Assembly: GCF_044324785.1 (NCBI RefSeq)
Contig: NZ_CP172127.1
From: Escherichia coli
GTDB taxonomy: Bacteria > Pseudomonadota > Gammaproteobacteria > Enterobacterales > Enterobacteriaceae
Direction: 5' to 3' (one strand)
Length of the DNA: 64,000 nucleotides
The notes under the pieces: generated by a model
What the model was told of the DNA's origin: nothing
What the model saw: only the letters and a program-made list of their open reading frames with translations
Database searches by the model: none
Program-made: the position numbers and the translations under genes
In this document: positions 6,439 through 11,460 of the stretch, piece by piece
Position numbering within the stretch: position 1 is the first letter of the stretch
Layout: the number at the start of each line of letters is the position of its first letter

Positions 6439-9288
6439 TTGAAATACCTTGCTTCTTTTCGTACAACCCTGAAAGCCTCGCGCTACATGTTCAGAGCATT
6501 GGCGTTAGTGCTCTGGCTGTTGATTGCTTTTTCATCCGTTTTTTACATCGTTAATGCGTTACATCAGCGAGAATCGGAAATTCGTCAGGAATTTAATCTG
6601 AGTTCCGATCAGGCTCAGCGCTTTATTCAACGCACCTCTGATGTGATGAAAGAGCTGAAGTACATCGCCGAAAATCGCTTATCGGCAGAAAACGGTGTGC
6701 TTTCCCCGCGTGGACGAGAAACGCAGACGGATGTGCCTGCGTTTGAACCGCTGTTTGCTGACTCTGATTGTTCCGCAATGAGTAACACCTGGCGAGGTTC
6801 TTTGGAGTCATTGGCGTGGTTTATGCGCTACTGGCGCGATAATTTTTCTGCGGCTTACGATCTCAACCGGGTATTTTTAATCGGCAGCGATAACCTCTGC
6901 ATGGCCAATTTCGGTCTGCGTGATATGCCAGTGGAACGCGATACCGCGTTGAAAGCGTTGCATGAACGCATCAATAAATATCGAAATGCACCACAAGACG
7001 ATAGCGGCAGTAACCTCTACTGGATCAGCGAAGGTCCGCGCCCTGGCGTCGGGTATTTTTACGCGTTGACGCCAGTTTATCTGGCGAACCGGTTGCAGGC
7101 GCTTTTGGGTGTCGAGCAGACCATCCGGATGGAGAACTTTTTCTTACCTGGTACGTTGCCGATGGGGGTTACCATTCTTGATGAAAATGGTCATACCCTG
7201 ATTTCGCTTACCGGACCAGAAAGCAAAATTAAGGGCGATCCTCGCTGGATGCAGGAACGCTCCTGGTTTGGCTATACGGAAGGTTTCCGGGAGCTGGTGC
7301 TGAAGAAAAATCTGCCACCCTCATCGCTAAGCATCGTGTATTCGGTGCCGGTTGATAAGGTGCTGGAACGCATTCGCATGTTGATCCTTAACGCAATTTT
7401 GCTGAATGTGCTTGCCGGAGCTGCATTGTTTACTCTCGCGCGGATGTACGAGCGACGTATTTTCATTCCGGCGGAAAGCGATGCCCTGCGGCTGGAAGAA
7501 CATGAGCAGTTTAATCGCAAGATTGTCGCCTCCGCGCCAGTAGGTATCTGCATTTTACGTACCGCTGATGGCGTCAATATTTTAAGTAACGAACTGGCGC
7601 ATACCTATCTCAATATGCTTACGCATGAGGATCGCCAACGACTGACGCAAATTATCTGTGGGCAGCAGGTCAATTTTGTTGATGTCCTGACCAGCAACAA
7701 TACCAATCTGCAAATCAGCTTCGTCCATTCGCGCTATCGTAATGAAAACGTGGCCATTTGTGTGCTGGTGGATGTTTCTTCGCGCGTGAAGATGGAAGAG
7801 TCGTTGCAGGAGATGGCACAAGCAGCGGAACAGGCGAGCCAGTCAAAATCGATGTTCCTTGCCACCGTCAGTCATGAGCTGCGAACGCCGCTGTATGGCA
7901 TTATCGGTAACCTGGATCTGTTGCAAACCAAAGAGTTACCGAAAGGCGTCGATCGTCTGGTGACGGCAATGAACAACTCTTCCAGCCTGTTGTTGAAAAT
8001 TATCAGCGATATTCTCGATTTCTCGAAAATTGAATCAGAACAGTTGAAGATCGAACCGCGTGAGTTTTCACCGCGTGAAGTGATGAACCACATCACCGCC
8101 AACTATTTACCGCTGGTGGTACGCAAGCAGCTAGGCTTGTACTGCTTTATTGAACCGGATGTGCCAGTGGCCTTAAATGGCGACCCGATGCGTTTACAGC
8201 AGGTCATCTCCAACCTGTTGAGTAACGCCATAAAATTCACCGATACCGGCTGTATAGTTTTGCATGTTCGCGCTGATGGCGATTATCTCTCTATCCGTGT
8301 TCGCGATACCGGCGTGGGGATTCCGGCGAAAGAAGTGGTGCGCTTGTTTGATCCCTTCTTCCAGGTCGGAACGGGCGTACAGCGTAACTTCCAGGGGACC
8401 GGTCTGGGGCTGGCGATTTGTGAAAAACTGATCAGCATGATGGACGGCGACATCTCGGTAGATTCAGAACCGGGAATGGGCAGCCAGTTTACCGTGCGTA
8501 TTCCGTTGTACGGCGCTCAGTACCCGCAGAAAAAAGGCGTGGAAGGGTTGAGTGGTAAACGCTGCTGGCTGGCGGTCCGCAATGCGTCGCTCTGTCAGTT
8601 CCTGGAAACCAGTTTGCAGCGCAGCGGCATCGTCGTTACAACATACGAAGGGCAGGAACCGACTCCCGAAGATGTGTTAATCACTGACGAGGTAGTGAGC
8701 CAAAAATGGCAGGGTAGAGCGGTAGTGACCTTCTGTCGTCGCCATATTGGTATTCCGCTGGAGAAAGCGCCAGGGGAGTGGGTACACAGTGTGGCTGCCC
8801 CGCATGAGCTACCGGCATTGTTGGCGCGTATTTATTTGATCGAGATGGAGAGCGATGATCCTGCTAACGCTCTGCCGTCGACGGACAAAGCGGTCAGCGA
8901 TAACGACGATATGATGATTCTGGTCGTGGATGATCATCCGATTAACCGGCGTCTTCTGGCAGATCAGTTGGGATCGTTGGGCTATCAATGTAAAACCGCG
9001 AATGATGGCGTCGATGCGCTTAATGTACTTAGCAAGAATCATATTGATATCGTGCTTAGCGACGTCAACATGCCAAATATGGATGGTTACCGCTTGACGC
9101 AACGCATTCGTCAGTTGGGACTGACGTTGCCGGTAATCGGAGTAACTGCTAATGCGTTGGCTGAAGAGAAGCAGCGGTGTCTGGAGTCCGGTATGGACAG
9201 CTGCCTGTCGAAGCCGGTAACGCTGGATGTGATAAAACAGACGCTGACGGTATATGCCGAGAGGGTCAGGAAATCGCGGGAATCGTAG
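6439..9288 (+). CDS. rcsC: Rcs phosphorelay hybrid sensor histidine kinase RcsC, 949 aa
   Basis: N-terminus MKYLASFRTTLK, two TM segments, HisKA H-box (ATVSHELRTPLYGI), HATPase_c and a C-terminal receiver (LVVDDHPINRRL...DVNMPNMDG). 949 aa as in E. coli RcsC. Apparent TTG start. Confidence 0.93.
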   Translation: MKYLASFRTTLKASRYMFRALALVLWLLIAFSSVFYIVNALHQRESEIRQEFNLSSDQAQRFIQRTSDVMKELKYIAENRLSAENGVLSPRGRETQTDVPAFEPLFADSDCSAMSNTWRGSLESLAWFMRYWRDNFSAAYDLNRVFLIGSDNLCMANFGLRDMPVERDTALKALHERINKYRNAPQDDSGSNLYWISEGPRPGVGYFYALTPVYLANRLQALLGVEQTIRMENFFLPGTLPMGVTILDENGHTLISLTGPESKIKGDPRWMQERSWFGYTEGFRELVLKKNLPPSSLSIVYSVPVDKVLERIRMLILNAILLNVLAGAALFTLARMYERRIFIPAESDALRLEEHEQFNRKIVASAPVGICILRTADGVNILSNELAHTYLNMLTHEDRQRLTQIICGQQVNFVDVLTSNNTNLQISFVHSRYRNENVAICVLVDVSSRVKMEESLQEMAQAAEQASQSKSMFLATVSHELRTPLYGIIGNLDLLQTKELPKGVDRLVTAMNNSSSLLLKIISDILDFSKIESEQLKIEPREFSPREVMNHITANYLPLVVRKQLGLYCFIEPDVPVALNGDPMRLQQVISNLLSNAIKFTDTGCIVLHVRADGDYLSIRVRDTGVGIPAKEVVRLFDPFFQVGTGVQRNFQGTGLGLAICEKLISMMDGDISVDSEPGMGSQFTVRIPLYGAQYPQKKGVEGLSGKRCWLAVRNASLCQFLETSLQRSGIVVTTYEGQEPTPEDVLITDEVVSQKWQGRAVVTFCRRHIGIPLEKAPGEWVHSVAAPHELPALLARIYLIEMESDDPANALPSTDKAVSDNDDMMILVVDDHPINRRLLADQLGSLGYQCKTANDGVDALNVLSKNHIDIVLSDVNMPNMDGYRLTQRIRQLGLTLPVIGVTANALAEEKQRCLESGMDSCLSKPVTLDVIKQTLTVYAERVRKSRES

Positions 9289-9306
9289 GACGGATAAGGC
9301 GTTTAC
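9285..9306. repeat. Left half of a REP/palindromic unit (gtaggacggataaggcgtttac) interrupted by the IS
   Basis: REP-like sequence immediately after the rcsC stop. Its continuation (gccgcatccggca...) resumes after the IS at 10743. Confidence 0.6.
9303..9306. repeat. Target-site duplication TTAC (left copy)
   Basis: TTAC directly abuts the left IR and is repeated at 10739-10742 abutting the right IR. Confidence 0.7.
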
Positions 9307-9331
9307 TGAACTGCACCCCAAATGTTGGACA
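9307..9331. repeat. IS left terminal inverted repeat
   Basis: Begins TG...; 21 of 25 positions match the reverse complement of the right end. Confidence 0.75.
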
Positions 9332-9357
9332 TAATCTGACATCTGAAGGTGCAGTTT

Positions 9358-10738: not shown

Positions 10739-10742
10739 TTAC

Positions 10743-10805
10743 GCCGCATCCGGCAATCGGTGCAAATGCCAGATAAGACACTAACGCGTCTTATCTGGCC
10801 TACAG
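10743..10805. repeat. Remainder of the REP/BIME palindromic units between rcsC and rcsB
   Basis: gccgcatccggcaatcggtgcaaatgccagataagacactaacgcgtcttatctggcctaca has the typical REP form (GCC-GGATG-CGGCG... / ...CTTATC-GGCCTAC). Confidence 0.6.
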
Positions 10806-10809
10806 GTGA

Positions 10810-11460
10810 TTAGTCTTTATCTGCCGGACTTAAGGTCACAGAAGAGAGATAATTCAGCAGAGCAATATCGTTCTCGACACCCAGCTTCATCATTGCAGAT
10901 TTCTTCTGGCTACTGATGGTTTTGATACTGCGGTTCAGCTTTTTAGCGATCTCGGTCACCAGGAAACCTTCCGCAAACAGGCGCAGCACTTCACTCTCTT
11001 TTGGCGAGAGACGCTTGTCACCGTAACCTCCAGCACTGATTTTTTCCAACAGGCGAGAAACGCTTTCCGGGGTAAATTTCTTCCCTTTCTGCAGCGCGGC
11101 GAGAGCTTTCGGCAGATCGGTCGGTGCACCTTGTTTCAGCACGATCCCTTCGATATCCAGATCCAATACCGCACTAAGAATCGCCGGGTTGTTGTTCATG
11201 GTCAGAACGATGATCGACAGGCTTGGGAAATGGCGCTTGATGTACTTGATTAAGGTAATGCCATCGCCGTACTTATCGCCAGGCATGGAGAGATCGGTAA
11301 TCAACACATGCGCATCCAGTTTCGGCAGGTTGTTGATCAGTGCTGTAGAGTCTTCAAATTCGCCGACAACATTCACCCACTCAATTTGCTCAAGTGATTT
11401 GCGAATACCGAACAAGACTATCGGATGGTCATCGGCAATAATTACGTTCATATTGTTCAT
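10810..11460 (-). CDS. rcsB: Rcs phosphorelay response regulator RcsB (receiver + LuxR-type HTH), 216 aa
   Basis: MNNMNVIIADDHPIVLFGIRKSL... receiver with a LuxR/FixJ HTH C-terminus. The ORF track extends 15 codons upstream; the start was chosen at the recognised MNNMN N-terminus. Confidence 0.93.
   Translation of the reverse strand: MNNMNVIIADDHPIVLFGIRKSLEQIEWVNVVGEFEDSTALINNLPKLDAHVLITDLSMPGDKYGDGITLIKYIKRHFPSLSIIVLTMNNNPAILSAVLDLDIEGIVLKQGAPTDLPKALAALQKGKKFTPESVSRLLEKISAGGYGDKRLSPKESEVLRLFAEGFLVTEIAKKLNRSIKTISSQKKSAMMKLGVENDIALLNYLSSVTLSPADKD

Follow-up and report, generated by a model that had tools for sequence, protein, structure and literature searches.

In the stretch of Escherichia coli DNA analysed here, 64,000 nucleotides of contig NZ_CP172127.1 (assembly GCF_044324785.1) referred to below as the window, the sensor kinase gene rcsC (6439-9288) lies on the plus strand and rcsB (10810-11460, with its stop at 10810) on the minus strand, so that the two genes converge on an insertion sequence (IS) of the IS3 family. 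This element is very probably a copy of IS1397 that is complete, seems able to transpose, has entered the loop of the rcsC-proximal repetitive extragenic palindromic (REP) unit of a two-REP bacterial interspersed mosaic element (BIME) and has duplicated the target bases TTAC.

The element occupies positions 9307-10738 in the plus orientation, a span of 1432 bp that follows from the sequence read at the left junction (...GGACGGATAAGGCGTTTAC followed by TGAACTGCACCCC...) and at the right junction (...GGGGTTCAGTTCA followed by TTACGCCGCATCCGGCA...). Its first bases are TGAACTG and its last are CAGTTCA, giving termini of the TG...CA type with TGAAC...GTTCA outermost, as is characteristic of the IS3 family. 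The left inverted repeat (IRL, TGAACTGCACCCCAAATGTTGGACA, 9307-9331, plus strand) and the right inverted repeat (IRR, 10714-10738, minus strand), the latter delimited by an inverted-repeat search and by comparison of the two ends, match at 21 of 25 positions. The repeat finder returned the element ends as the longest inverted pair in the window (pair I1, 28 nt, 82% complementary), and the IRL sequence occurs once in the window, with a match in none of 100 shuffles. TTAC stands on both sides of the element, at 9303-9306 and at 10739-10742. The initial annotation, which had been made from the letters alone, had placed a 1432-bp element with imperfect terminal repeats of about 25 bp and a flanking TTAC repeat at this locus, and its coordinates proved exact to the base. 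A search of the window for a second copy of IS1397 found none, leaving 9307-10738 as the sole copy.

The element was compared by megablast with 5,426 complete E. coli genomes, a set to which the window's own genome does not belong. It aligns from nucleotide 1 to 1432 with many genomic copies, and to such copies it shows 99.9% identity over 1432/1432 nt. Among the matches listed, all are annotated as "IS3-like element IS1397 family transposase", a label assigned in RefSeq by the Prokaryotic Genome Annotation Pipeline (PGAP); taken together, the megablast matches are IS1397-labelled, except for a few copies with a generic IS3-family label and an unannotated relic described below. The original description reportedly gives IS1397 a length of 1432 bp. 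By the convention of ISfinder, isoforms of one element share a nucleotide identity of at least about 95%. The RefSeq-labelled copies lie above this value, and so does the copy in strain CFT073, which was chosen as an anchor independent of PGAP and was located by its published flanks; over 1432 nt, its identity to the element studied here amounts to 98.4%. Tobes and Pareja showed the CFT073 element, with its flanks, as IS1397. That copy carries a 5-nt deletion, is called a pseudogene by PGAP and has a target duplication of AAC.

A different IS3-family member that merely resembles IS1397, such as ISKpn1 or an IS150 relative, might be considered, as the PGAP label reads "IS1397 family". Yet the element is nearly identical both to the labelled copies and to the CFT073 copy named in the literature, and it shares with IS1397 copies the type of target and the size of the duplication. 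We therefore regard such a mistaken identity as extremely unlikely and treat the element as IS1397, as the initial annotation had proposed from its length and its REP target. Of the 5,426 genomes, 1,707 contain IS1397 at a coverage of 80% or more, and 7,616 chromosomal places were counted overall. Among genomes with any match, the median is one place per genome with a wide spread; the two BH100 assemblies have 38 and at least 40 places and SK1402 has 27, which suggests recent bursts in a few lineages.

Ten other IS1397 copies at nine loci were sampled for closer comparison, namely at yfiE (in two strains), yceF/rluC, lpxL, rrf/mobB, yjfN/aidB, hybG, pepN, yjdM and nhoA/yddE. Relative to the commonest variant, the window copy carries two to three substitutions, of which those at IS nucleotides 1022 and 1165 are rare among the sampled copies and that at 1202 separates it from about half of them; its ends are identical to those of the other sampled copies.

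The coding capacity of the element is that of an IS3-family transposase. orfA (9358-9879, plus strand) encodes 173 residues with two HTH_28 domains and begins at the ATG equivalent to the start of the PGAP coding sequence elsewhere (IS nucleotide 52). The slippery heptamer A_AAA_AAG lies at 9831-9837 in the frame of orfA, and the orfB frame, which is -1 relative to orfA, is open across it from IS nucleotide 465 to 1400, that is, to window position 10706. The initial annotation had described this arrangement of 0/-1 frames, and it is upheld here. Likewise, PGAP annotates other copies, identical ones included, with a two-piece coding sequence marked "programmed frameshift" at IS nucleotides 52-1400, corresponding to window 9358-10706. 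Fusion across the heptamer would yield an intact OrfAB of 449 residues, identical to the protein of one of the sampled copies (L006); the same protein is recorded elsewhere as WP_106425742.1. The single difference from the commoner variant is R372K, the window protein carrying R372. The NCBIfam IS3 transposase model NF033516 scores OrfAB at 387.6 bits against a cut-off of 160 and is covered over positions 1-369 of 369, and Pfam detects HTH_28 twice, HTH_21, rve (E 7e-21) and rve_2. In profile searches and by sequence reading, the orfB part (9837-10706, plus strand) contains HTH_21 and the rve core with D295, D355, E391 and K398; 35 residues separate the second aspartate from the glutamate, as in a DD(35)E triad, and the lysine follows at +7. 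The match to the curated model, the two overlapping 0/-1 frames with their heptamer and the DDE residues in the rve core together place the element in the IS3 family. Inside the 3' end of orfB, just before the IRR, there is also a 13-bp hairpin that is 92% complementary (10661-10689, ACTCAGCCCGGTA gaa TACCGGACTGAGT), which is followed by no T-run on either strand.

The target is a REP unit, here called REP1, that is divided between the two flanks, whose sequences are GTAGGACGGATAAGGCG on the left and CGCCGCATCCGGCA on the right. The left half (9285-9306) consists of GTAGGACGGATAAGGCG plus the loop bases TTTAC, and the right half (10739-10755) consists of TTAC and GCCGCATCCGGCA, as defined by flank reading, empty-site alignment and folding. 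When the left half is joined to 10743-10755, the restored site reads TGCCGGATGCGGCGTAAACGCCTTATCCGTCCTAC on the opposite strand and agrees with the REP consensus published for E. coli in 34 of 35 positions, with the duplicated bases in its loop. Strains that lack the insertion bear out the split REP, as the initial annotation had anticipated: the spacer of 19KM1831 equals the left flank plus the right flank with one TTAC, base for base, and N3 and K-12 have the same intact REP, again with a single TTAC. Of the 5,426 genomes, 5,336 contain the joined flanks with one TTAC as an uninterrupted stretch, and the hits of this query carry the rcsC annotation. Once restored, the spacer measures 85 bp and forms two hairpins, REP1 and REP2, with predicted folding energies of -39.7 kcal/mol (z -4.16) for the strand of rcsC and -44.2 kcal/mol (z -6.67) for that of rcsB.

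In choosing this target, the window copy behaves as its relatives do. All ten sampled copies lie in a REP loop, in either orientation, and their duplications measure 4 bp in seven cases and 3 bp in two and are imperfect in one; the window site, with its loop insertion and its 4-bp duplication, thus shows what is expected of IS1397. In the literature, IS1397 is described as inserting specifically into REPs, also called palindromic units (PUs), with the transposase determining the specificity. The locus is a clean textbook example of such REP-loop targeting.

Neither the left nor the right junction was covered in any of the 5,426 complete genomes (0/5,426 for each), and the closest genome over 20 kb, N3, is 99.7% identical and has the empty site. 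Among metagenome contigs scanned for the exact pattern, one, from the human gut (European Nucleotide Archive entry OQCW01003027), contains the left, rcsC-IS junction, with a match of 99.9% over 907 bp. The absence from the genome set, the empty site in N3 and the presence of the junction in one gut contig together indicate that the insertion is real and lineage-specific and that it is probably recent. One might argue instead that a repeated IS was misplaced between rcsC and rcsB during assembly, given that IS copies often break or mis-join assemblies and that no complete genome of the set has the junctions. However, neither the exact 4-bp duplication nor the precise split of the REP loop would result from a mis-join, and the metagenome contig carries the same left junction independently; an artefact of this kind is hardly credible. 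The rcsC-IS1397 junction is of use mainly as a strain or lineage marker. The E. coli part of the contig (L014:4677-5583) comprises the 3' end of rcsC and the left end of IS1397, and the contig stops inside the repeated IS. The remaining 4.6 kb or so (L014:1-4676) has MraY-, MurD- and FtsW-like genes and no match to the window; its Firmicutes-like look was judged by eye, without a database search.

We propose that IS1397 inserted into the loop of the rcsC-proximal REP and thereby duplicated its 4 bp, and that the steps of this process would follow the general scheme of the family. A -1 frameshift at the heptamer would fuse OrfA, with its DNA-binding helix-turn-helix (HTH) domains, to OrfB, with its DDE/rve core, to give the 449-residue OrfAB. 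This protein would then recognise the 25-nt terminal repeats and, as far as IS3-family knowledge can be carried over, move the element by a copy-out/paste-in route, and the transposase itself would direct integration into REP loops. A further layer of control may be provided by RNA structure. In the plus strand, the outer part of the IRL (9307-9317) pairs with 9348-9358 in a hairpin spanning 9307-9358 (-23.9 kcal/mol, z -4.56, with 0 of 200 shuffles as stable), which was also returned as inverted-repeat pair I3 and covers part of the orfA Shine-Dalgarno sequence and the A of its AUG. Such a hairpin is predicted to form only in transcripts begun outside the element, here by read-through from the co-directional rcsC, and it probably blocks translation of the transposase from these transcripts.

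With its intact OrfAB, its A_AAA_AAG heptamer and its DD(35)E triad, the window copy looks functional. The alternative would be a dead relic, incapable of transposition in spite of its intact appearance. Many IS1397 copies in E. coli are degraded, that of CFT073 among them, and the window copy has the rare and less common substitutions mentioned above as well as R372 where the commoner variant has lysine. Nevertheless, the copy has undamaged reading frames, slippery site, DDE residues and termini, its protein is also encoded in other genomes, and the absence of the insertion from the closest relative fits a recent event, all of which makes a dead relic very unlikely. Several observations weigh against our interpretation of the locus as an active IS1397 and should be kept in view. 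The name used here is taken from the PGAP label and from the comparison with CFT073, and activity is deduced from the intact sequence only. The stem predicted downstream of the heptamer falls short of significance (z -1.55; 14 of 200 shuffles did equally well), and no sigma-70 consensus promoter for the transposase was found in 9200-10900. Finally, the gut contig has about 2x coverage and is almost certainly chimeric outside its E. coli part, and owing to this chimerism and low coverage only its last 907 bp were counted.

Several known elements resemble the window element in one respect or another. IS150 and other IS3-family elements of K-12 have two open reading frames, an A_AAA_AAG-type frameshift, a DD(35)E core and TG...CA ends, but, unlike IS1397, they are not known to have specificity for REP loops. 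IS1397 itself, described in E. coli by the Hofnung/Clement group, is essentially the same as the window copy in sequence and shares with it the -1 orfA/orfB frameshift and the position in a REP/PU loop with a duplication of 3-4 bp. Compared with other IS1397 copies, the window copy differs only in its location, the rcsC-rcsB spacer, and in its two to three substitutions, the exchange of R372 for lysine being conservative. ISKpn1, an IS3-family element of Klebsiella pneumoniae, also targets palindromic units, and its specificity is likewise reported to be set by the transposase; it is described as a distinct element, specific for Klebsiella-type PUs. IS621, an IS110-family element of E. coli, shares with IS1397 the specific insertion into E. 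coli REP sequences, but its transposase belongs to an unrelated family and it has no orfA/orfB frameshift. It has been reported to recognise a 15-bp REP sequence and to insert at the 3' side of it, outside the inverted repeats and not in the loop. The element, the family to which it belongs, the frameshift and the targeting of REP loops have all been described before, and the window holds a further copy of a well-described element in a well-described target.

Both genes beside the element are intact. rcsC encodes 949 residues in 2850 nt, the length annotated in K-12, N3 and 19KM1831, and its TAG codon (9286-9288) lies in the left arm of REP1. rcsB encodes 216 residues; its mechanical reading frame extends to 11505, and the MNNMNV... 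start lies 15 residues in, giving the 651 nt annotated in the same three strains. rcsD (11477-14149, minus strand) lies upstream of rcsB. The convergence of rcsC and rcsB around the insertion, with stops at 9288 and 10810, is thus as the initial annotation had it. That annotation had further supposed a terminator region shared by the two genes, which did not hold up: the spacer consists of two REPs, and a scan of 9200-10900 found no intrinsic-terminator consensus in it. The same scan gave one terminator-like site, inside orfB on the minus strand, fewer than in shuffled sequences, and no sigma-70 consensus site. We therefore make no claim of an outward promoter or of a shared intrinsic terminator.

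The two transcripts differ in what the insertion leaves at their 3' ends. A loss of REP structure, also suggested in the initial annotation, applies to rcsC, where REP1, which overlaps the stop codon, is split and what is left of the 3' sequence does not fold stably (z +0.32). It does not apply to rcsB, where REP2 (10768-10803), at a distance of 6 nt from the rcsB stop, is preserved; its 12-bp stem is perfect and was detected as inverted-repeat pair I9 and by folding, and the rcsB-side fold that includes REP2 is retained at -35.4 kcal/mol (z -5.71). Any such effect on transcripts, itself speculative, would accordingly be limited to rcsC, as the REP adjoining the rcsB stop is intact. In Rfam, the sole match was a sub-threshold hit to naRNA4, a nucleoid-associated RNA derived from REP/BIME sequences, at 10715-10800 (35.5 bits against a gathering score of 59.5), and it reflects only the REP content of the right flank.

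Could the insertion change the output of the Rcs phosphorelay? It might do so by any of three routes, namely if rcsC mRNA were destabilised or extended, if it were terminated inside the IS, or if transcripts from the IS ran antisense into rcsB. The split REP1 with its unstructured remainder would be compatible with such effects, and so would the transposase gene, which is co-directional with rcsC and faces the 3' end of rcsB, with no intrinsic terminator between the IS and rcsB on the plus strand. On the other hand, both coding sequences are intact, any plus-strand transcript must cross the intact REP beside rcsB, and the very stable IS hairpin, which begins 19 nt after the rcsC stop, could replace REP1 as 3' protection. 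Moreover, no outward promoter consensus was found, and IS1397 occupies such 3' spacers at many loci. From these sequence features, a change in Rcs output appears unlikely, and antisense read-through into rcsB, possible in principle, is without support. The most likely phenotype is none, or a small change in the 3' end or the stability of rcsC mRNA. We consider it quite improbable that the insertion is a regulatory variant affecting the Rcs envelope-stress response by altering the level of RcsC. If it were, the loss of REP1 and the prolongation of rcsC transcripts into the IS, and perhaps on into rcsB in antisense, would alter capsule and biofilm signalling in the lineage. The insertion bears on Rcs regulation only if rcsC or rcsB expression is measurably altered, and nothing here suggests that it is; otherwise it matters little beyond correct annotation.

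The initial annotation also stated that IS1397 is absent from K-12. Because of a 65-bp relic, this is true only of the whole element. About 1,790 complete E. coli genomes are without a full IS1397, and in an evenly spaced sample of these, the members listed, including MG1655, MC4100 and a BL21-type strain, all carry the relic, which is unannotated. It corresponds to the right end of IS1397 (IS nucleotides 1368-1432) with 63 of 65 positions identical and lies in MG1655 at NC_000913.3:3625524-3625588 (L018:4525-4589); in further genomes it is found at L016:1501-1565 and L017:1501-1565. The relic is joined directly to half a REP (TAAACGCCTTATCCGGCCTA) and stands between yhhI, the transposase gene of ISEc1 (the H-repeat) in the RhsB region, and yhhJ. 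It has the look of an old insertion into a REP loop, with the left part since lost beside yhhI, and it calls for a slight qualification of the usual view that IS1397 is missing from K-12.

The spacer between rcsB and rcsC is itself variable. In K-12 (L001:1329-1527) it measures 199 bp and consists of two tandem copies of a two-REP unit of about 90 bp, each opening with the final 11 nt of rcsC (GGGAWTCGTAG). Only one unit, of 85 bp, is present in the window (9278-9306 plus 10743-10809), in 19KM1831 and in N3. The unit of the window and of 19KM1831 resembles the rcsB-proximal unit of K-12, and that of N3 resembles the rcsC-proximal one. The type of unit goes with the penultimate residue of RcsC, a glutamate (E) in the window and an aspartate (D) in both K-12 and N3.

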